Part shown: in pieces, positions 6,841 through 56,637 of the stretch | Layout of the letters: every line of letters starts with the position of its first letter | Numbering within the stretch: position 1 is the first letter of the stretch | NCBI GenBank assembly: GCA_016930235.1 | Contig: JAFGHI010000030.1 | Location: forward strand, 43,834 to 107,833 | Reading direction: 5' to 3' | Length of the DNA stretch: 64,000 nucleotides | Origin: Candidatus Omnitrophota bacterium | GTDB taxonomy: Bacteria; Omnitrophota; Omnitrophia; Omnitrophales; Aquincolibacteriaceae | The notes under the pieces: model-generated | What the model saw: the letters and a program-made list of their open reading frames with translations, nothing else | Told to the model about the DNA's origin: nothing | Database searches by the model: none | Program-made: the position numbers and the translations under genes

Positions 6841-7302
6841 CTACTTCTTTCCCGATAGGGCTTCAGTCACTTCCACTTGGTGATAGGATTCTTCGATGGC
6901 TTTGCGGATCGCTGTCGGAACGCAGAGGACGGTATCGATTTGGGTGACTTTTGCGAGTTGTTTGATTTCTTCTTCCGGCCAAAGGTGAATCGGATTTCCA
7001 ATACCAAGGGTGAGCTTATCGCGATAAAGTTCAATCGGAAGGATATTATATTTTTGAGCCACACTTTTAGGAATAAGGGCAACCGCCTTAGGATTAATGC
7101 GCGTACGGCTTAAATCCACAAACCGCATGACATATTGTTCTGCAAGTGCTTTGTAGAGAAGATGTTCGTGAACCAGACCTTTACGGATTAGGATCTCACC
7201 GATTAATTCCTTTGTGCGCTCCTGCTCCTCAAGGGCGTCCTTTAATTGATCCCAAGTTAGGAGTTTCTTTTGGATGAGAATTTCACCGATTCGCCATGAC
7301 AT
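6841..7302 (-). CDS. Standalone MshEN / GspE-N-terminal domain protein, a putative c-di-GMP receptor
   Basis: It carries two tandem 24-residue MshEN motifs, RIGEILIQKKLLTWDQLKDALEEQ and LIGEILIRKGLVHEHLLYKALAEQ. The rest of the protein resembles the T2SE N-terminal domain. It has no ATPase domain. Confidence 0.7.
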   Translation of the reverse strand: MSWRIGEILIQKKLLTWDQLKDALEEQERTKELIGEILIRKGLVHEHLLYKALAEQYVMRFVDLSRTRINPKAVALIPKSVAQKYNILPIELYRDKLTLGIGNPIHLWPEEEIKQLAKVTQIDTVLCVPTAIRKAIEESYHQVEVTEALSGKK

Positions 7303-7391
7303 AATGTTAGTAACCTATTTTGCTTGCTGATTTTACGTGGGATATTCATTTTTGGCAAGCTTCTTCATCCGGAGAGGTTCTCTGCCTTTGA

Positions 7392-7421
7392 TTGACACTT
7401 CTGATCTGCCTGTAATATAAT
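7392..7421 (+). promoter_or_regulatory. Sigma70-like promoter upstream of lysS (TTGACA-N18-TATAAT)
   Basis: TTGACA lies at 7392-7397 and TATAAT at 7416-7421, about 45 nt before the lysS start. Confidence 0.4.
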
Positions 7422-7467: not shown

Positions 7468-8895
7468 ATGAAACATAAAGAATGTGCCTACGGCGGGCGG
7501 TTTCTGCCTATGGAGTCTATTGAGACCCTCAGAAAAGAGTTCAAAGAAGGCCGCCAAGTCAAAATTGCGGGGCGTTTGATGTCCCGGCGGATCATGGGAA
7601 AAAGTACTTTTTCGGACTTAAAGGATCAGAATGGCCGTATTCAAATCTACGCCAAGAAAGATGTGCTCGGGGAAGAACTCTATCATGTCTTCACCTCTTT
7701 GAATATCGGGGATATCCTGGGCATTGAGGGAATTTTGTTCACTTCCAAAACAGGTGAACCTACGGTGCGCATTGAAAATTTCAAGGTCCTCTCGACGATT
7801 GTCCGGACTTTACCTGAAAAATGGCACGGCCTGAAGGATATTGAGACACGCTACCGTCACCGGTATGTTGATTTGATTGTCAATGATGATGTCCGCAAGA
7901 TTTTCAAAAAACGCAGTGATATCATCCGGGGGATACGCCAATTTTTAGACGACCGCGGATTTATGGAAGTGGAAACTCCCATGATGCAGCCGATTCCAGG
8001 CGGCGCTCGAGCAAAACCCTTCGTGACGCATCATAACGCACTTCATACCGATTTATATCTGCGAGTCGCTCCAGAACTTTATCTCAAAAGGCTCTTAGTC
8101 GGCGGGTTTGAGAAAGTCTATGAAATTAACCGGAACTTTCGCAATGAAGGGGTCTCCGTGCGCCATAATCCGGAATTTACGATGCTGGAAGTTTATCAGG
8201 CTTATGCGGATTACACGGACATGATGGAAATCACCGAAGAACTGATTTCCGGTTTGGTCAAGGAATGCTACGGCAAAGAGGAAATTCCTTTCGGTGACAA
8301 GACCCTTAACTTTAAGCGGCCGTGGAAGAGGATCTCTTTCTATGATGCGATTCAAGAAAAAACGGGTATTGATTTCCGCAAGATAAAGATTCGTGAAGGG
8401 GCCAAGAAATTAAAGATCGAAAGGTTGAGCGAGCTCAATGAAATGGAAGAGGTCGACATCTTAAATGAAATCTTTGATGAGGTGCTCCAAGACGAATTGT
8501 GGCATCCGACCTTTGTGATTGATTATCCGACGGTGATGACGCCTTTGGCCAAGGCCAAAGAAGAGGACCCCGATCTTGTTTACCGATTTGAGCTTTTCAT
8601 TGCCAAGATGGAGTTAGCGAATGCCTTTTCGGAACTTAATGACCCGATGATCCAAAGGGAACGTTTGACGGTTCAAAAAGAGATGATCGGAGAACACAAG
8701 GTGATTGATGAGGACTTCCTTATGGCTCTTGAATATGGGATGCCTTCAGCGGGTGGTTTGGGGATCGGAATTGACCGCTTGGTGATGCTGTTGACAAATC
8801 AGCATTCGATCCGGGAAGTGATTTTATTTCCGCAGCTGAAACCGGAAAAACCGGTCGCTGATTTGGACGGTGATGATGACGAAGGAAAAAAATAA
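7468..8895 (+). CDS. lysS: Lysyl-tRNA synthetase, class II
   Basis: It has an OB anticodon-binding domain (GRLMSRRIMGKSTFSDLKDQNGRIQIY) and class II motifs. The N-terminal extension is short. Confidence 0.9.
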   Translation: MKHKECAYGGRFLPMESIETLRKEFKEGRQVKIAGRLMSRRIMGKSTFSDLKDQNGRIQIYAKKDVLGEELYHVFTSLNIGDILGIEGILFTSKTGEPTVRIENFKVLSTIVRTLPEKWHGLKDIETRYRHRYVDLIVNDDVRKIFKKRSDIIRGIRQFLDDRGFMEVETPMMQPIPGGARAKPFVTHHNALHTDLYLRVAPELYLKRLLVGGFEKVYEINRNFRNEGVSVRHNPEFTMLEVYQAYADYTDMMEITEELISGLVKECYGKEEIPFGDKTLNFKRPWKRISFYDAIQEKTGIDFRKIKIREGAKKLKIERLSELNEMEEVDILNEIFDEVLQDELWHPTFVIDYPTVMTPLAKAKEEDPDLVYRFELFIAKMELANAFSELNDPMIQRERLTVQKEMIGEHKVIDEDFLMALEYGMPSAGGLGIGIDRLVMLLTNQHSIREVILFPQLKPEKPVADLDGDDDEGKK

Positions 8896-47919: not shown

Positions 47920-48570
47920 GTGGATAAAGAGTTTTATCAAGCCGTTCCGGGGACTTCCTACGATGATTTGTTGAAAAGCCGAAATCCTTTTCGAAGGTGG
48001 TTTCATGTCAGTCGCTACCGCAATATTCAAAACCTTGTGGACACATGTCCTAAGCCTCATGGCAGGATTCTTGATTTGGGCTCCGCCAGTTGCTGCTGGA
48101 ATACAAAAAAATTACCGGTGGTCGGGCTTGATTTTAATGAGGCCTTATTGAAACAAGGAAAACAATGCGGCCGGTTGGTGGATTATCGGGTGGCCGATGC
48201 GGCCCATACGGGATTTGAGGACAAGAGTTTTGATGTGGTCGTCGGTGCTGAAGTTTTAGAGCACATGAAGAGTCCAGACTTGATACTCCGGGAAGTCCAT
48301 CGCGTTCTCAAAGATGACGGACGTTTTGTCATTTCGGTTCCTGATGACGGTTCTTGGACCGCTTGGAAGGCGCTCTTTTCCTTGGTGACTTTTTACTACG
48401 GGTATCTTTTAGGAGACCCGTATATGAAAAGTCAATGCGGCCACATTCATCATTTTTCCGCCAAAGATTTAAAAAAAATTTTAGTGCATAATGGATTTGA
48501 GATCGAAAAATATTTTACTTTTTGGACCCTGACGTTGTATTGTGTCGTGCGTAAATCCCCAAATTCTTAA
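47920..48570 (+). CDS. Class I SAM-dependent methyltransferase
   Basis: Motif I is ILDLGSASC. The VVVGAEVLEHM post-II motif is present. Confidence 0.75.
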   Translation: MDKEFYQAVPGTSYDDLLKSRNPFRRWFHVSRYRNIQNLVDTCPKPHGRILDLGSASCCWNTKKLPVVGLDFNEALLKQGKQCGRLVDYRVADAAHTGFEDKSFDVVVGAEVLEHMKSPDLILREVHRVLKDDGRFVISVPDDGSWTAWKALFSLVTFYYGYLLGDPYMKSQCGHIHHFSAKDLKKILVHNGFEIEKYFTFWTLTLYCVVRKSPNS

Positions 48571-48571
48571 G

Positions 48572-49555
48572 ATGATGTCTAAAATAATTTCGAATCTCCA
48601 GTATGTCCCGGCCAAGCCAATGCTGCTCGGCCGTATCTTTGTCAACTATCTTTCTCAGATAGTTCTCAGAAGGCCTCTTTTGCGAGTGGTCAATTTTGCT
48701 GTCAATTATGCCTGCCAATTGTCCTGTCAACACTGCTCGGCCGAAGGGATCAAGGATCAGAACGAGGGTCAGGGGAAGTTGACCTTAGACGAGATCAAGA
48801 AATTCTTTAAAGAAGCCGAACAGTGCGGGACAATCAATTATCATTTCACGGGAGGGGAACCTCTGCTTGAGAAGCGGTTTTATGATATTGTTTTACTCAT
48901 CCGAAAAGACAGGAATATCCTGAGTATGGTGACGAATGGTCTATTACTGGCCGAAGAAGCGGGTCGTCTGAAAGATGCAGGTTTTGATTTGATTCAAGTG
49001 AGTATTGACAGCCCTGATCCGGATGTCCATGACAAGATCCGAGGTTATCCAGGGGCTCATCAAAAGTCCTGGGAAGGTGTCGAAGCTGCGCTTGACCAGA
49101 AATTAAAAGTAATGCTTTGCATGGTGGCCACCAATGAGAACCTTGAAAACGGTGAAGTCGAAAAGCAAATTGAGATATGCCGCAAGAAGGGCATTGTCCT
49201 TCAAATTCTTCCGGCCAGGAATGTCGGAAAGTGGGAAGGCGAATCTTCGGCCCTACTTAGCGAAGAAAATAAAACTAAATTTTACAGGCTTGTCCAAGGT
49301 TTTTATGCCCGGTGGGACGGGCAGTCCAGTTATTTTCCTCCCTGCTGTTTGGCCGGAAGAGAGCGTCTCTACATTAGTCCGACAGGCGATGTCTATCCTT
49401 GCGATTTTATCCAGGAATCTTATGGAAATGTCCGAGAAGAAAGTTTGAAAAAGATATGGGAACGCATTTTAAGTACCCATCCTTATCAACAAAAAAACAG
49501 AGAATGCCTAACGGCTTTCAATGAGGAATTCATTCGACGTCCTAAACAATCTTAG
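48572..49555 (+). CDS. Radical SAM enzyme with a C-terminal SPASM/twitch-like Cys cluster
   Basis: CQLSCQHC gives the CxxxCxxC motif. The C-terminus has CCLAGRER...YPCDF. Confidence 0.75.
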   Translation: MMSKIISNLQYVPAKPMLLGRIFVNYLSQIVLRRPLLRVVNFAVNYACQLSCQHCSAEGIKDQNEGQGKLTLDEIKKFFKEAEQCGTINYHFTGGEPLLEKRFYDIVLLIRKDRNILSMVTNGLLLAEEAGRLKDAGFDLIQVSIDSPDPDVHDKIRGYPGAHQKSWEGVEAALDQKLKVMLCMVATNENLENGEVEKQIEICRKKGIVLQILPARNVGKWEGESSALLSEENKTKFYRLVQGFYARWDGQSSYFPPCCLAGRERLYISPTGDVYPCDFIQESYGNVREESLKKIWERILSTHPYQQKNRECLTAFNEEFIRRPKQS

Positions 49556-49563
49556 CCGGCATT

Positions 49564-50667
49564 TTGTCCGTTGAAAGAGAACCCTTGATGCTGAAATATG
49601 CCTTTGGAGCGTTACGAACGCTCCTTTTTCGAACTCCTTTAAATGTTCGCCTATGGGTGACGATGCGGTGTAATTACCGCTGTCAGACCTGCGGAATTCC
49701 AGAGGTCAAACCAATACCTGAAATGGGGCTAGACGAGTTTGATCAAGTTGCAGCCAATTTATCCCGCCTGGGTGTCAGCCAAGTTGTCCTCACAGGCGGC
49801 GAGGCTTTTTTAAGGAGTGATATTGTCGAAATTATTCGTTTGTTCGCGGATCGTCATTTTATTGTCCGGATTCAAACGAACGGAGGAGCGCATGTGACCG
49901 AAGATCTGCTCCGCAGAAGTTATAAGGCCGGTCTTCAGGACATCGGGATTTCGCTGGATACTTTGGATGAAGAGGCCTATGACAAATTTTGTGGGACAAA
50001 AGATGCGGTGAAAAACGCTTTACGTGTCCTCAGGTTATGTTTATCAAAATACCCCAGCCGTGGCGTCATCAGCGCCAATGTTGTCATCTCGAAAAAGAAT
50101 TTCTATGATTTACCCGCCATGATGGATTTTGTCCAGGATTTGGGGGCCTGTTTTGTGCCTTGTATCATGACCGGAAAATTCTCCGAGCTTGGGAAAAGTG
50201 AGCCAGATTATTTTCAGAGTTTTGGCCTACCTGATTTATATCAAGCAGATCCGAGTCGAGCGGAACAAATCTTTGCCGAAATCGATACACGGGTCCAGAA
50301 AGGTTATCGGATCTTGACGACCTCCCGGATTTGGGATGACCTAAGACGCTATATGAGGACAGGAGATTGCCGATGGCGTTGTTTAGCAGGAGAGATTTCT
50401 TTTGATATTACTCCGGACGGAGCCATTGCACCTTGCAGTGATACCCTTCAGGCCGCTTATGAACAGCCTGTCCTGAATGCTAAAAGCAGTGATTTTATTG
50501 AACGATTTAAGGGTTCCGGATATAGGGAGAAATGCCGGTCCTACCAGAATGAATGCCAGGGATGCCTCTACGGCTGTTACCGGGATCCTTTTTATTTAGT
50601 GACTGATCTTCGCATCCCTTTTGAGGTTTTTTTAAAATCCATTCGGTTTAAAAAGTTTCTTCATTGA
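49564..50667 (+). CDS. Radical SAM enzyme with a C-terminal SPASM domain (second copy)
   Basis: It has CNYRCQTC. The C-terminal Cys cluster is CRWRC...APCSD...CRSYQNECQGCLYGC. Confidence 0.75.
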   Translation: MSVEREPLMLKYAFGALRTLLFRTPLNVRLWVTMRCNYRCQTCGIPEVKPIPEMGLDEFDQVAANLSRLGVSQVVLTGGEAFLRSDIVEIIRLFADRHFIVRIQTNGGAHVTEDLLRRSYKAGLQDIGISLDTLDEEAYDKFCGTKDAVKNALRVLRLCLSKYPSRGVISANVVISKKNFYDLPAMMDFVQDLGACFVPCIMTGKFSELGKSEPDYFQSFGLPDLYQADPSRAEQIFAEIDTRVQKGYRILTTSRIWDDLRRYMRTGDCRWRCLAGEISFDITPDGAIAPCSDTLQAAYEQPVLNAKSSDFIERFKGSGYREKCRSYQNECQGCLYGCYRDPFYLVTDLRIPFEVFLKSIRFKKFLH

Positions 50668-50668
50668 T

Positions 50669-50851
50669 ATGAGAAAAACTTTTTTGGGGCTCCTTTTCAT
50701 TGTCGCGCTGCACGCGGTTTACACGTTTCGCGCCTTTCCTGTCTTGGATTTGGCGTTTTCGACGCCCCTCCTGAGCATTGATTACGGAACTCATTATTTT
50801 CAAACTCGGCAAACCTTAGGATTCGAGAAGATACGAATTTATCTCTCATGA
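50669..50851 (+). pseudogene. Decayed N-terminal remnant (~50 aa) of a third paralog of the downstream membrane-protein genes
   Basis: FRAFPVLDLAFSTPLLSIDYGTHYFQTRQTL aligns to the N-termini of the two downstream proteins (VFPVYQLDPGTPILINDFSIHHYQTEQML and VFPVQKLDLQTPILTHDMAFHHYQTQQAL). It then diverges and stops. Its stop overlaps the next ATG (ATGA). Confidence 0.45.
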
Positions 50852-52722
50852 AAAAAACGATTCTTTTGCTGCTTTTACTCGTTCTTGCGCAAGGATTATT
50901 TATTTATCGAGTATTTCCCGTTTATCAATTGGATCCCGGGACGCCGATTTTGATTAATGACTTTTCGATTCATCATTATCAAACCGAGCAGATGCTCTAT
51001 TTATTGAAACATTTCGGCAAGGTTTCGGGGTACGATCCTTTCTTTATGGCGGGTTATCCCGGCGTTGTGGTGAATTTGACGGATAATTACGGAGTGGCTT
51101 TCACCCTTGGTTTGTTGTCGATGTGGCTTCCTTTGGCGATTGCCGAAAAGTTATTTCTTATCGGCATGCTGTTCCTATTTCCCATTATTATTTATCTGGC
51201 AGCCGTTTGCTTAGGGCTGAGCCGGTCTCAGAGTTTTTTAGCCGGGATCCTGTTAGTCGTGGTGATGCAATATCATGAGTATTACCGGTCTTTGATGAAC
51301 TGGGGGCTTTATAGCTTTGTGATCTCTATCTTTCTATCGATCCTTTGGTTTTCGCTGATTGTCCGGTATTTTAAAGAACGAAGTCGGAGAAAATGGCTGG
51401 CCGCGCTTCTGGTGGGGGCTTATACCGTATCGGTTCATCCGCTTTCGGTGCCCATGTTTTTGAGCTTCCTTGGACCGTATCTTATCTTCGATGCCAAGAA
51501 ATTGACACGCCGCTTCTTTAACGGTCTTTTGGTGATGATGCTGTTAATCGTTCTGGCCAACAGTTATTGGATCGTCCCGTTATTGCTTCACAGCGGTTAT
51601 TATCATCAGGAAGCGATCTATCAAAAGGCGTTTGGGTTTGAAAAATTCATCAAAGATTTAATGAGTGTTGACCAAGCCATCTTTCATATCCTGATGGTCC
51701 TATCCGTGATCGGAACGCTTATTTCATTGCGAAAGAAAAAAATAGAAGCTCCGGTCGTCCTGGCTCTTTGGTGTGCCTTTTTTATTTTCTACGGCATCAG
51801 TTATTTCGGGGAACATTCGCTGGTTCAGAATTACTTTTCACATATCGAACCCGCAAGGTTTATCACCGCGGCTGTTTTTTTGATCCCGCTCTTGACGGTT
51901 TATGGGATCTCCGGTTGGGGGGAGGAGCGGATCCGGAATCTAGCTGTTCTCTTGATCTTCTCGATGATCGCGATGCAGGCATATTGCTTAAGTTCGATTC
52001 AACATCAGGATAACTGTACGGCAAGTCGTATCAAGAGGGTTCTGTGCGGGAACATGTGCCAACCGACGGAATGGGGAAAGGATATTATGGCTGAAGGAGG
52101 AGACAGGCTCGTGCGTCGAATTCGCGAGGTCACAGATCCGAGTGCGCGAATCTTATTGGAAGATCACATTTGGGACTTTGTGTATTGGGATTCACGTTTA
52201 CCGGCTTTAATGTCGATGCTAACAGAGCGAAGCTATATCGGGGGCCCTTTCCCGCACTTGTCGACAAAATATAATTTTGCGAACTTCTCAAGCGGGATGA
52301 TCTTTGGAAGGGCCATCCAGGAGATCCCGATCGGTGAGTTGATGGAGTATATGAAGCTCTACAATGTCGGATGGGCTGTTATTCATAGCCCCGAGGCCAC
52401 TCGATATTTTCAAATGCATGGAGTTCGATTCCGGTTTCTCGGCAAGGTACCGGGCCCCGAGGGGTGGGAGTTTAGATTTTATCGAGTAGCCTCTGAGAGG
52501 AATTATTTTGTTCGAGGCAAGGGCAAGGTTACGATGGAATGGAACGAATTAAAATTATCCGGATTAAGTGAGGGTGAAATTATTTTAAAGTTTCATTACG
52601 CAAGGGACCTTCGGACGAAGCCGCCCGTTTTAATCCAAAAGGTCGATTATTTGGATGATCCCATGGGGTTTATCAGATTGGAGAACCGTGAGGGCTATGA
52701 CACGATCCGGATTACTCAATGA
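50848..52722 (+). CDS. Large polytopic membrane protein with a C-terminal soluble domain (unknown family, GT-C-like architecture)
   Basis: It has ~9-10 predicted TM helices in the first ~370 aa, followed by a ~250-aa hydrophilic domain. Confidence 0.6.
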   Translation: MKKTILLLLLLVLAQGLFIYRVFPVYQLDPGTPILINDFSIHHYQTEQMLYLLKHFGKVSGYDPFFMAGYPGVVVNLTDNYGVAFTLGLLSMWLPLAIAEKLFLIGMLFLFPIIIYLAAVCLGLSRSQSFLAGILLVVVMQYHEYYRSLMNWGLYSFVISIFLSILWFSLIVRYFKERSRRKWLAALLVGAYTVSVHPLSVPMFLSFLGPYLIFDAKKLTRRFFNGLLVMMLLIVLANSYWIVPLLLHSGYYHQEAIYQKAFGFEKFIKDLMSVDQAIFHILMVLSVIGTLISLRKKKIEAPVVLALWCAFFIFYGISYFGEHSLVQNYFSHIEPARFITAAVFLIPLLTVYGISGWGEERIRNLAVLLIFSMIAMQAYCLSSIQHQDNCTASRIKRVLCGNMCQPTEWGKDIMAEGGDRLVRRIREVTDPSARILLEDHIWDFVYWDSRLPALMSMLTERSYIGGPFPHLSTKYNFANFSSGMIFGRAIQEIPIGELMEYMKLYNVGWAVIHSPEATRYFQMHGVRFRFLGKVPGPEGWEFRFYRVASERNYFVRGKGKVTMEWNELKLSGLSEGEIILKFHYARDLRTKPPVLIQKVDYLDDPMGFIRLENREGYDTIRITQ

Positions 52723-54616
52723 AATAAAACCGCCTAAAGTGTCAGCGATCTTCATGATCGTTCTCCTGATGGGTTTGCAGATTATCTTTGTGGTGAAGGT
52801 TTTCCCGGTGCAGAAACTTGATCTTCAAACGCCGATCTTAACCCATGACATGGCTTTCCATCATTATCAGACGCAACAGGCACTTTATTTGCTGAAACAT
52901 TTCGGCAAAACTTGGGGATATGATCCTTTTTACATGGCCGGTTATCCCACGGCGGTCGTGAATATGACGGATAATTTCGGGGCTGCCTTTGCGGTCGGAT
53001 TTCTTGCGTTTTTTCTGCCCTTGGCTTTGGCCGAAAAGGTTTTTCTGTTGGGGATAATGATTTTATTTCCCGTATGGATCTTTTGGGCAGCTAAAAATTT
53101 CGGATGCAGCGACCAGGAATCCTTCCTTTCAGGAATAATAGTGACATTGGTTTTACAACATCATCCTTTCTATGTCAGCATGATGAACTGGGGACTCTAT
53201 AGTTTTGTGCTTGCGGCGGCATTCTCGGTATGTTGTTTTTCGCTCATCGTTCGTTTTGTTGAAAGGCAGGATAATAGGGCTTGGTTATGGATGACCATCC
53301 TCGGGAGCTATCTGGTGTCGGTTCATCCGCTTTCGGTGCCGCTCCTTTTTTTGTTTCTCATACCGTATCTTATTCTTTCGAAAGAGGCTTGCCAGTTTAA
53401 TAATTTGATTCGAATAACGGCATCTTTTCTCGTGATGTTTTTCATGAACTTATACTGGATCTTGCCCCTTCTAAAGGCAAGCCCTCTGTACAAGCATGTC
53501 CCGACATATGTTCAGGCATTCGGAATAGAACAGTGGATGGCGGATGTCAAAGATTTGAAGCTTGTCCTCTTCCATGTATTTGCCCTCATCGGTGTCATGG
53601 CACCTATTTTTGTGTGCAAATCAGAAAAAACAAGCCGAAATTGGGTCTTATCGCTGGGGACGGCCTTCATGATCTTTTATGGTTTATCTTATTTTGGGTT
53701 TTACGGGCCTTTCAAATATTCATTAGCCCATATTGAACCGGGGCGGTTCATCGTTGTCGCCATATTTGTGATTCCCTTGCTATCGGCTGTGACCCTAAGC
53801 GAAATTGCCCGGAGCCATATTCGGAAAATGAATATATTGTTAATTGCTTTTGTTTTTTTGTCCCAACTGTTTTGTCTTTATTCCGCGGGAAAGATCAAGA
53901 AAGGGGATTTTATTTATCAAAAATGCGATCTATTGTTTTGTTCGAGTTATCGTGAGCATTCAAGATGGGGAGACGATGTCATGGCCGAGGGCGGCCAGGC
54001 TTTAGTGGATGCGATTAAACAATACACCGATTCTTCTGCCCGTATCTTATTGGAAGATCACACATGGGCTTGGGCTTATTGGGAATCGAGATTGCCGGCA
54101 TTGTTGGCGGGATTGACCGGACGGGAGTATATCGGAGGCCCGCTTAATCTTAGGATCCAACATCAGTTCGCGCATTTTGAAATCGGGAAATTATTTGGCC
54201 GATCTATTTTAAGTCTTCCGGTTGCGAAATTCTTAGATTATGTAAGGCTCTATAATATCGGCTGGGCTGTCATCCATAGTGATGAAGCCAAAATGTATGT
54301 CAGGCGGCATCCGAAAAGGTTTACCTACTTAACAAGTCTACAAGGCGCTTACGGTATAAGATTTGATCTTTATCGGATCGCAAATCATGAATCTTATTTT
54401 GTTAAGGGTGAAGGTAAAATCGAGCGTGTCGGATGGAACGAGATTGTCCTGAGCAATCTATCCAAGGGACCCGTAGTCATCAAGTATCACTACTTTGAGG
54501 GTTTGAAGACGGATCCAAAGGTGGAAATATCCCGAGTAGAAGTTTTGGATGACCCTATAGGATTTATCTCATTAGATAATTCGAAAGGGTATGCCCGGAT
54601 TCGTATAACCACATAA
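52697..54616 (+). CDS. Paralog of the preceding polytopic membrane protein
   Basis: It is collinear with the upstream protein at ~45% identity across both the TM and C-terminal domains. The start is uncertain (52655, 52697 or 52739). Confidence 0.6.
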   Translation: MTRSGLLNEIKPPKVSAIFMIVLLMGLQIIFVVKVFPVQKLDLQTPILTHDMAFHHYQTQQALYLLKHFGKTWGYDPFYMAGYPTAVVNMTDNFGAAFAVGFLAFFLPLALAEKVFLLGIMILFPVWIFWAAKNFGCSDQESFLSGIIVTLVLQHHPFYVSMMNWGLYSFVLAAAFSVCCFSLIVRFVERQDNRAWLWMTILGSYLVSVHPLSVPLLFLFLIPYLILSKEACQFNNLIRITASFLVMFFMNLYWILPLLKASPLYKHVPTYVQAFGIEQWMADVKDLKLVLFHVFALIGVMAPIFVCKSEKTSRNWVLSLGTAFMIFYGLSYFGFYGPFKYSLAHIEPGRFIVVAIFVIPLLSAVTLSEIARSHIRKMNILLIAFVFLSQLFCLYSAGKIKKGDFIYQKCDLLFCSSYREHSRWGDDVMAEGGQALVDAIKQYTDSSARILLEDHTWAWAYWESRLPALLAGLTGREYIGGPLNLRIQHQFAHFEIGKLFGRSILSLPVAKFLDYVRLYNIGWAVIHSDEAKMYVRRHPKRFTYLTSLQGAYGIRFDLYRIANHESYFVKGEGKIERVGWNEIVLSNLSKGPVVIKYHYFEGLKTDPKVEISRVEVLDDPIGFISLDNSKGYARIRITT

Positions 54617-54713
54617 AATTAAGGTATCAGTTCAAAATCGCGACAATAAGTAACATTCCTATCATCGACACCTGAATCATCCAATGCCCAAAGAAAAAAC
54701 GAATGGACGATTA

Positions 54714-54742
54714 TTGACATTTCAAACATCGTATGGTATATT
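54714..54742 (+). promoter_or_regulatory. Near-consensus sigma70 promoter, TTGACA-N17-(TGg)TATATT
   Basis: TTGACA lies at 54714-54719 and TATATT at 54737-54742, with an extended -10 TG at 54734-54735. It sits in a 300-bp AT-rich gap. Confidence 0.5.
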
Positions 54743-54754
54743 TTAAGCATTATA

Positions 54755-54784
54755 AATGTATTATAAAGTAATTTATAATACATT
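54755..54784. promoter_or_regulatory. Perfect 13-bp inverted repeat AATGTATTATAAA-gtaa-TTTATAATACATT just downstream of the predicted TSS
   Basis: It is read directly from the sequence, at about +6 to +35 relative to the predicted TSS. Confidence 0.45.
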
Positions 54785-54910
54785 GTGTCGATCGTAAAGT
54801 TGAAAATTTAGAGTTTTCCTCCGCGGGTGAGGGAGTGCTGAAGACTAAAGATCATCTCTTTAGAGGAAGGCATTTCCTCTCCCCTTTTTAGAGTGTAGTC
54901 GGATCTTTGC

Positions 54911-55138
54911 ATGAAGGCCGACTGTTGCCGGTTGAAAAGAAGTGGAGAGGGAATTCAAAGAATGGGGTTAACGGCAATGTCACGAAATATCAGAAAAGTC
55001 ATCTCATTGATTTCGAATCTGTATCGATTGGAAAAGAAACTCACCGAGATAAAGTCCAAATGCGTCAATAAAAAAGAAGGCAAATGCACGATGGAATTTC
55101 TCGGCGATAACTATCCCGTCTTCGGTCATCTATCATAG
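54911..55138 (+). CDS. Putative small Cys-containing peptide of 75 aa, or 58 aa from the internal ATG at ~54962 which has a GGAGAGGG RBS
   Basis: The ORF is bracketed by the strong promoter and a strong terminator. A helical region is followed by ...SKCVNKKEGKCTMEF... The RBS for the first ATG is weak. Confidence 0.25.
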   Translation: MKADCCRLKRSGEGIQRMGLTAMSRNIRKVISLISNLYRLEKKLTEIKSKCVNKKEGKCTMEFLGDNYPVFGHLS

Positions 55139-55161
55139 TTTAAAATTGGGACGGCAATCCG

Positions 55162-55210
55162 GGGTTAGAAATCGATGGAGTATAGGCCTTGATTTCTAAC
55201 CCTTTTTCTT
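55162..55210 (+). terminator. Rho-independent terminator (12-bp stem GGGTTAGAAATC/GATTTCTAACCC followed by TTTTTCTTT)
   Basis: A perfect 12-bp inverted repeat is followed immediately by a T-tract. Confidence 0.6.
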
Positions 55211-55463
55211 TGCAGCCCCAAAAGTTATCCGAAGATATCATCCCGATAGGACCGAGGATGCTATGGCCGAGAGTGACGGCATCTATGGGTTCTATTCTGT
55301 AAACCCCTGAGAGAGTAAGGGATTGAGAAGAAAGTCTCGATGAGTCAATAAAATACTGAATAAGTCGATGATATAGAGGATAGATTCGAAGCATTGATGG
55401 GGAGGAAAAGAAGTTTAAACCGCAAGAGTATGAACAAAGTGTCCGGACGAAAGGGGGATCTCA

Positions 55464-55646
55464 TTGCTTGAATCGGTTACGGATTCCATAGGGCAAATAG
55501 TCAATCAGCTGACGGAAATATTCAGAAGTACCGTTAGTTACCTGGGATATAACTATGGGTTAACAGAGGGGCAAAGCAACGCTTTGATAATGGGAATCCT
55601 GGGGATTTTGATCTTTATCATTCTCAGGAGCTTTTGGGGGAAATAG
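55464..55646 (+). CDS. Putative small membrane peptide of 60 aa with a TTG start
   Basis: An RBS-like AAGGGGGA lies 5 nt upstream. The C-terminus is a hydrophobic helix. Confidence 0.25.
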   Translation: MLESVTDSIGQIVNQLTEIFRSTVSYLGYNYGLTEGQSNALIMGILGILIFIILRSFWGK

Positions 55647-55767
55647 CCTGCTATTTCCCTGGGGTGCGCCGCTCTTTCCCTAGATTCAGAAAATTCCTTC
55701 CGCAGTCGGGTTAAACTAGCCAATTCATTCCTAACATGTTACAATGCAATTCTTTAAGGAGGAAATT

Positions 55768-56100: not shown

Positions 56101-56637
56101 ATGAAACCAGGAATTTATATCCCCATCGTATTTATTGCCTTTTCATTCATCATTCCAGAGTCCAGAGGAGAAACGGCTATGAAGATTACGAGCACGGCAT
56201 TTCAAGACGGAGAAATGATTCCGGTTCAATATACCTGCGATGGCGAGGATGTATCACCTCCGCTTGAGTGGCAGGATATTCCGTACGGGACTGAAAGTTT
56301 GGCCTTAATCTCGGATGATCCTGATGCCCCCATGGGGACTTGGGTCCACTGGGTGATTTATAATATTCCCGCATCCGTGGCCAATCTGCCCAAGGGAATG
56401 CCCCGGACAGGTAAATTGATGAACGGTGAAAGGCAGGGAACGACCGATTTCGGCCGCGTTGGATATGGGGGGCCGTGTCCTCCCGGAGGTACCCATCGTT
56501 ACTATTTTAAACTTTACGCCTTAGACCGGGGGTTGGATCTTAAACCCGGAATTACCAAGGAAGAACTTTTGAAGGCGATGGACGGTCATATTTTAGCCGA
56601 GGCCCAGTTGATGGGCCGATACGAGCGGTCACGATAA
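56101..56637 (+). CDS. YbhB/YbcL-family PEBP (Raf-kinase-inhibitor-like) protein with a signal peptide
   Basis: DDPDAP...WVHWVIYNIP is the PEBP signature. Confidence 0.8.
   Translation: MKPGIYIPIVFIAFSFIIPESRGETAMKITSTAFQDGEMIPVQYTCDGEDVSPPLEWQDIPYGTESLALISDDPDAPMGTWVHWVIYNIPASVANLPKGMPRTGKLMNGERQGTTDFGRVGYGGPCPPGGTHRYYFKLYALDRGLDLKPGITKEELLKAMDGHILAEAQLMGRYERSR

Follow-up and report, generated by a model that had tools for sequence, protein, structure and literature searches.

Does the 1,151-bp gap at 54617-55767 of the DNA analyzed here supply a substrate for the radical S-adenosylmethionine (rSAM) enzymes encoded upstream of it, a gene of its own, or nothing at all? The DNA in question—the whole stretch of 64,000 nucleotides (nt), called the window throughout—is part of a 126,764-bp contig from a metagenome-assembled Candidatus Omnitrophica (Omnitrophota) genome. 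A first-pass annotation had described a self-contained transcription unit with a small, Cys-containing open reading frame (ORF) within this gap, and had taken it for the precursor of a peptide synthesized by the ribosome and modified after translation (RiPP) that the rSAM enzymes act on, or alternatively for a small regulatory RNA. The reading that we favor, with about even confidence, is an independent, lineage-specific (orphan) transcription unit, which is unrelated to the rSAM genes and whose folded leader would gate an ORF of 53-58 codons. The DNA motifs behind this reading can be seen in the sequence itself; the folds of the RNA are predictions, which their strand asymmetry and their rank within the window support.

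The frame of the unit is given by three elements:

54714-54742, plus strand: sigma-70-type promoter with extended -10 element, 11/12 consensus positions plus the TG.
54755-54784, plus strand: perfect 13-bp inverted repeat whose arms flank GTAA (4 nt), roughly +6 to +35.
55162-55211, plus strand: intrinsic terminator, 12-bp stem and U-run.

The promoter had been called a textbook case, and it is found as described: TTGACA at 54714-54719, a 17-nt spacer, and TGg-TATATT at 54734-54742, from which transcription would start at ~54749. Only six sites of at least 10/12 exist on both strands of the window, and four of them fall into the ~5% that is intergenic. Hence, consensus promoters look meaningful and used in this genome, and the site at 54714-54742 is unlikely to be noise. 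Elsewhere in the window, the gene at 7468 is preceded at a distance of 76 nt by a perfect 12/12 promoter (TTGACA, 18-nt spacer, TATAAT; -35 at 7392). On the minus strand, a 10/12 site with its -35 at 7358 diverges from it toward the gene at 6841-7302, so that 7358-7420 forms a textbook divergent promoter region.

The inverted repeat, also as announced, is complementary at 13/13 positions (AATGTATTATAAA at 54755-54767 and TTTATAATACATT at 54772-54784), and no such repeat occurs in 100 shuffles. In the RNA it is predicted to fold into a 13-bp hairpin with a GUAA cap (a GNRA-type tetraloop) at -11.3 kcal/mol and z = -4.5, beginning six nt from the predicted 5' end—a position at which it would stabilize that end of the RNA. 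In the DNA it could serve as an operator, and it does not appear to fit the consensus boxes of LexA, Fur, NrdR, or CodY. At the other end, the terminator stem pairs GGGTTAGAAATC (55162-55173) perfectly with GATTTCTAACCC (55191-55202), can be extended to ~14-16 pairs, and is followed by TTTTTCTTT. Its free energy is -20.9 kcal/mol (z = -3.5), and no other hairpin plus T-run in the window is as clean; it begins 24 nt past the stop codon of the ORF, and the 12-bp stem claimed earlier is confirmed. A near-consensus sigma-70 promoter and a same-strand downstream hairpin with U-run are what marks an independent unit as predicted from sequence. Promoter, palindrome or hairpin, ORF, and strong terminator stand in the right order on one strand, which bears out the description as self-contained.

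Between the palindrome and the ORF, a more elaborate RNA structure is predicted:

~54810-54958, plus strand: three-way-junction leader of ~150 nt, predicted, 55 pairs.
~54811-54824 (GAGUUUUCCUCCGC) with ~54942-54956, plus strand: P1, predicted closing helix.
54825-54883, plus strand: P2, hairpin of 21 pairs at -29.8 kcal/mol, then C and UUUUU to 54889.
54884-54939, plus strand: P3, predicted hairpin.

Folded as a whole, the predicted transcript (54749-55212) reaches z = -4.6, and this signal comes from three places: the palindrome hairpin, the three-way junction, and the terminator hairpin. The junction has a minimum free energy (MFE) of -63.8 kcal/mol and z = -5.63 on the plus strand. Its reverse complement has a z of only -0.98; therefore, G-U pairs contribute and the fold signal is strand-specific. 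Of 1162 150-nt windows scanned along both strands of the 64 kb—with the phase of the sliding window set to fit the element—the junction ranks first for z as well as for MFE, and it is kept in the centroid of the full-transcript fold. The remainder is not unusually structured, with z = -0.35 for the ORF and z = -1.3, 0.1, and -0.8 for the remaining 550 bp of the gap. Such a layout of structured leader, unstructured coding body, and terminator is usual for an mRNA.

A hairpin followed by CCCCTTTTT at 54862-54889 (hairpin part 54862-54880) had been noted before as weak. Its presence holds, its weakness does not: it is the tip of the 21-pair P2 within the three-way junction. P2 and its U-run possibly act as a first, probably leaky, intrinsic terminator, which would release an RNA of ~140 nt; if transcription goes on, the same U-run becomes the 5' strand of P3. 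Two CU-rich stretches, UUUUCCUCC at 54814-54822 and UUUCCUCUCCCC at 54873-54884, resemble an anti-Shine-Dalgarno sequence.

What the leader might control is the small ORF that follows:

54911-55138, plus strand: candidate small ORF of 75 amino acids (aa); internal ATG at 54962 (58 aa).
54944-54951, plus strand: Shine-Dalgarno (SD)-like GGAGAGGG, -7.6 kcal/mol to the anti-SD at a spacer of 9, lying 10 nt ahead of the ATG at 54962.

Both lengths quoted earlier for the ORF are present, and translation from the ATG at 54962 yields exactly the peptide given then. Two alternative starts are available: 54911, which has no SD (75 aa), and 54977 (53 aa), which is accessible at an opening cost of 6.4 kcal/mol. 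Strength and spacing of the SD resemble those of about half of the genes here. The ORF fills the space between leader and terminator; in shuffles of this 271-nt spacer, at least 75 codons arise with P = 0.015 and at least 58 codons with P = 0.11. Its positional composition is not decisive, and a second frame is also open at 54907-55071.

If made, the protein would be small and basic. Counted by residue, the 58-aa form bears 11 K/R and 5 D/E, and it holds no hydrophobic stretch and only two Cys; it would not be membrane-embedded. In a single-sequence AlphaFold2 model, residues 3-32 form a confidently predicted helix and residues 34-44 a weak beta-hairpin with both Cys, followed by a disordered tail—in agreement with the helical N-terminus and the two C-terminal Cys described at first pass. 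The predicted helix is amphipathic and coiled-coil-like. A sequence search of the PDB gives only weak GCN4-zipper-like matches (E of at least 0.03), which hence point to an amphipathic heptad helix.

Taken together, the following course of events can be proposed. The near-consensus extended -10 promoter would start transcription at ~54749, and the GUAA-capped hairpin would protect the emerging 5' end. At P2, with its 21 pairs and U5, some transcripts might end as the ~140-nt RNA, exposing the CU-rich, anti-SD-like UUUUCCUCC. Transcripts that read through would form P1, which pairs the SD-like GGAGAGGG in the MFE as well as in the centroid structure; because of this pairing, translation of the small basic, coiled-coil-like protein would be gated by the leader. 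The strong hairpin and U-run would finally end a ~460-nt transcript at ~55210. Transcription, partial termination, translation, and gating are all deduced from sequence and predicted folds in this scheme. A further-reaching version, to which we assign a low probability, sees in the three-way junction an undescribed Omnitrophota regulatory RNA—ligand- or signal-responsive, or a dual-function small RNA (sRNA)—that works as a two-state switch between the terminated ~140-nt RNA with its anti-SD-like, CU-rich seed and the read-through mRNA with its locked ribosome-binding site (RBS).

The same features can be read without any protein. The ~140-nt RNA (54749 to ~54890) and/or the 460-nt RNA might be functional as a purely noncoding sRNA, which would act in trans via UUUUCCUCC and UUUCCUCUCCCC on the RBSs of target mRNAs, the ORF being incidental. 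Strong promoter, 5' hairpin, single-stranded linker, and a 3' end of hairpin and U-run are the standard anatomy of a trans-acting sRNA, and the fold signal is exceptional and strand-specific; the structure analysis makes the regulatory-RNA alternative of the first-pass annotation somewhat more plausible. Also, the ORF is without homologue, its coding statistics are ambiguous, and stop codons are simply scarce here, as the open second frame indicates. However, termination at P2 may be weak, since just five U's follow it after an intervening C, and the 250 nt that lead from P3 to the strong terminator show no structure and house an SD-preceded, space-fitting ORF. Neither an Rfam match nor a second copy or relative was found: Rfam 15 gives no match at gathering thresholds in the whole window; at E of up to 10, the region 54500-55800 matches only eukaryotic miRNA and snoRNA models at chance level; and a tRNA/tmRNA search finds none. 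We therefore regard a purely noncoding sRNA as a serious but rather unlikely explanation.

Promoter, SD-pairing 5' untranslated region (UTR), small ORF, terminator, and orphan distribution also recall the mRNAs of the type I toxins hok, tisB, and aapA, and the folded leader might then keep the RBS of a toxic peptide hidden up to the processing or refolding of the RNA. We rate this as very unlikely: the peptide is basic, hydrophilic, and devoid of a transmembrane segment. Moreover, no promoter-like site of at least 9/12 on the minus strand faces the ORF or the leader—the unit has a single minus-strand site, at 54767-54740 (9/12), and this one is directed away from it—and PADLOC returns no match.

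Apart from the unit, the gap holds a second unannotated candidate small gene, a 60-aa ORF (ORF60) with TTG start at 55464-55646 on the plus strand (MLESVTDSIGQIVNQLTEIFRSTVSYLGYNYGLTEGQSNALIMGILGILIFIILRSFWGK). It bears a C-terminal hydrophobic helix and the strongest SD of the window (GAAAGGGGG, -12.9 kcal/mol, spacer of 6), and none of the spurious ORFs tested reaches its codon score of 0.153. Its stop codon lies within a perfect 10-bp inverted repeat (55638-55659). ORF60 has no homologue in a word-index search, no recognizable promoter of its own, and no NCBI annotation.

Relatives of the unit were sought widely. By exact look-up, none of the 75-, 58-, and 53-aa forms nor ORF60 is an annotated protein anywhere, and a word-index search of 5.8 G clustered proteins returns no homologue of the peptide. 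Nor does the peptide match anything when contigs of JGI metagenomes and IMG/VR are scanned in six frames, and two exact-pattern scans of viral contigs found nothing. Pfam, NCBIfam, PHROGs, and PADLOC hold no family that matches the small ORFs. The gap DNA matches nothing in phage and plasmid collections, the peptide nothing on plasmids, and blastn, nhmmer, and tblastn searches with the gap find no match in any of the 162 fetched loci. Two matches from a full HMMER search of 1.84 G representatives were rejected as artifacts of repeat proteins, whose units resembling LYRRERKLTEF match a single helix turn 10-12 times over. Neighboring genes were used as anchors as well: scanning genome contigs with the 653-aa membrane protein encoded upstream of the gap yields no match, and this protein has only nine homologues among the 5.8 G proteins; a metagenome scan anchored on the Zn-ribbon gene downstream of the gap gives 80 loci of up to 72% identity, none of them syntenic and none with the unit. 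The lineage is thinly sampled, and comparison is hence possible only at long range.

Several points weigh against a leader-gated small gene and have to be set beside the evidence above. Over the whole gap, the sole other copy of the locus (contig L081 of Logan run SRR13394437) is 100% identical and thus yields no comparative signal; among 185,579 species genomes, the closest MutS reaches 66% identity, has other neighbors, and is not syntenic. A covariance model of the leader, run against 1.87 Mb of fetched loci, matches itself alone, and the leader folds are single-sequence predictions, ranked with a window phase that suits the element. The cost of opening the RBS at 54962 (13.4-14.3 kcal/mol, compared with 8.4 +/- 3.5 for 42 window genes; top ~15%) is high, yet inside the range of ordinary genes. 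Neither the NCBI annotation nor the Logan gene caller (on contig L081) calls the candidate ORF, or any other protein in the gap; for NCBI this is seen from the consecutive accessions of the membrane protein and the Zn-ribbon protein on its two sides. Finally, the codon-usage log-odds of the ORF are 0.055, where true genes have a mean of 0.265 and a 5th percentile of 0.091, and the 95th percentile of spurious ORFs is 0.071. The real Zn-ribbon gene next door scores lower still (-0.005), and the codon test is therefore without power here.

With conservation absent everywhere searched, the constellation might also have no current function at all, and be, in a long gap, either a product of chance or a remnant, now decaying, of a gene or mobile element that was lost. 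The length of the gap would suit such a relic, being unusual for a compact genome (any other gap in the window measures at most 521 bp), and so would the fragment-like ORF at 50669-50851, which shows local duplication and decay. On the other hand, none of the tested six-frame ORFs of the gap matches a protein family, and a promoter of 11/12 plus TG, a 13/13 palindrome, the top-ranking fold, and the best terminator co-occur on one strand. Four strong signals together in the correct order are hard to obtain by chance, and we consider absence of function quite unlikely.

This leads back to the rSAM enzymes. Their genes belong to the following plus-strand series, which ends at the gap:

47920-48570, plus strand: methyltransferase gene.
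48542-49555, plus strand: rSAM/SPASM gene (Pfam).
49564-50667, plus strand: second rSAM gene (Pfam).
50848-54616, plus strand: two paralogous genes for polytopic membrane proteins of 624 and 653 aa, 46% identical.
54617-55767: the noncoding gap of 1,151 bp.

A sactipeptide- or ranthipeptide-like precursor, modified by the rSAM/SPASM enzymes encoded at 48542-50667, was suggested by the peptide's small size, its helical N-terminal half, and the two Cys of its C-terminal half, together with a same-strand location no more than 4.3 kb from two rSAM genes, of which one has a SPASM domain. The unit had been placed next to the rSAM locus; in fact, the two membrane-protein genes, large genes of ~1.9 kb each, intervene, and the ORF starts 4.3 kb past the end of the last rSAM gene (54962 vs 50667), between a promoter and a terminator of its own. 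Nor does it sit in a 300-bp AT-rich gap, as had been stated: AT-richness is confined to the first ~200 bp (30% GC) of the much longer gap. The enzymes do not look like RiPP maturases. Pfam recognizes only Radical_SAM, SPASM, and Fer4_12 in the two proteins and no PqqD domain or RiPP recognition element (RRE) in either; since the radical-SAM cores start at residues 57 and 33, there is no room for an N-terminal RRE. None of the RiPP-maturase models of NCBIfam reaches its cut-off on them, NCBIfam and Pfam contain no SCIFF or other precursor family that matches the peptide, and no peptidase or exporter gene is seen among the genes of the cluster.

The comparison with homologous modules points in the same direction. 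Two were recovered, L082 (JGI 3300009431) and L083 (Omnitrophica GCA_016931215.1), whose proteins are 48-53% (rSAM/SPASM), 49-53% (second rSAM), and 35-39% (large membrane protein) identical to those of the window. The conserved module spans:

47920-54616 in the window.
4201-12066 in L082.
6500-13061 in L083.

Shared by these three Omnitrophota-like contigs, it consists of a methyltransferase (fused to GT2 in the relatives), the rSAM/SPASM protein, the second rSAM protein, a polytopic membrane protein of ~620 aa, and GT2 genes; the membrane-protein gene is duplicated in the window, and L082 additionally carries a B12-binding rSAM. After the membrane-protein gene, a GT2 gene follows within 4 nt in L082, and L083 has a 500-bp gap without comparable signals. 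Nothing related to the peptide or the gap DNA is present in either locus, and when all intergenic segments of the three modules are compared with one another, no shared small ORF or DNA element appears. Small ORFs beside rSAM homologues are thus not conserved in these two distant loci—the outcome that the first-pass annotation had itself listed as speaking against its proposal—and no homologue of the peptide turned up among proteins or in six-frame metagenome scans. Because the constant partners of the rSAM pair are a methyltransferase, GT2, and a large membrane protein, the pair would act on a glycan or lipid rather than on a peptide. All this makes the RiPP proposal highly improbable, the least probable of the explanations considered here. 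The lesson is mainly a negative one: the rule that a Cys-containing small ORF near a SPASM rSAM gene marks a RiPP cluster does not hold at this locus.

The surroundings of the unit call for a few further remarks. Downstream of the gap follow:

55768, plus strand: true start (GTG) of an FmdB-type Zn-ribbon gene.
Downstream of the Zn-ribbon gene, plus strand: a PEBP gene of the YbhB/YbcL type, followed by mutS and mutL.

NCBI lists the flanking proteins as MBN1688364 to MBN1688368 (locus tags JW893_04630 and JW893_04635). The Zn-ribbon gene bears a promoter-like site of its own (TAGCCA, 17-nt spacer, TGt-TACAAT; 9/12 plus TG; 55717-55767) and a strong SD, AAGGAGG, 5 nt ahead of its GTG; the start in the mechanical ORF list (55744) lies 24 nt too early. 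Both NCBI and Logan start the PEBP gene at 56179, which gives 152 aa. Its frame is open from an ATG at 56101 (56101-56637), and the 26 extra residues, MKPGIYIPIVFIAFSFIIPESRGETA, resemble a signal peptide; the protein may hence be exported and its start mis-annotated. On the upstream side, the 624- and 653-aa membrane proteins have no Pfam, NCBIfam, or PDB match. The 60-aa ORF at 50669-50851 (plus strand), inside the 180 bp that separate the second rSAM gene from the first membrane-protein gene, is similar by eye to the N-terminus of these paralogues (MRKTFLGLLFIVALHAVYTFRAFPVLDL... vs MKKTILLLLLLVLAQGLFIYRVFPVYQLD...) and has the look of a third, truncated copy or of a scar left by duplication.

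Nothing in an independent unit of this type is categorically new, as small genes and sRNAs with a folded leader are well-known kinds. To our knowledge, however, no regulatory RNA or small protein has been experimentally characterized in the almost entirely uncultured Omnitrophota. If transcribed, the unit would be an unannotated small gene or sRNA of this phylum and a compact, clonable test case.

Among known systems, mRNAs whose leader pairs the SD—riboregulators, RNA thermometers, and translational riboswitches—share with the unit a long 5' UTR (~210 nt here), an SD within the 3' strand of a long closing helix, and a promoter and terminator of their own. Unlike riboswitches and thermometers, this leader shows no recognizable ligand-binding or thermosensing motif and belongs to no Rfam family; at -64 kcal/mol, the junction is also far more stable than known thermometers, and the gene that it would gate is an orphan small ORF instead of a metabolic or stress gene. 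The dual-function RNAs SgrS/SgrT, RNAIII/delta-haemolysin, and SR1/SR1P likewise combine, on a short transcript, structured parts with pairing motifs and an ORF of <60 codons. This comparison is one of layout only, there being no relationship by sequence or family.

The likeness to hok, tisB, and aapA extends over strong promoter, RBS-sequestering folded leader, small ORF, strong terminator, and patchy distribution, and it ends at the hydrophilic, basic peptide without membrane helix and at the antisense RNA gene, which is not recognizable here. Sactipeptides and ranthipeptides/SCIFF, in turn, resemble the locus in the small peptide, its helical N-terminal part, its C-terminal Cys, and a SPASM enzyme in the region. 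In contrast to these, the ORF described here is neither adjacent to nor co-transcribed with the enzyme, the enzymes bear no RRE in Pfam, and the peptide has only two Cys, matches no family model, and is not conserved along with the enzymes.

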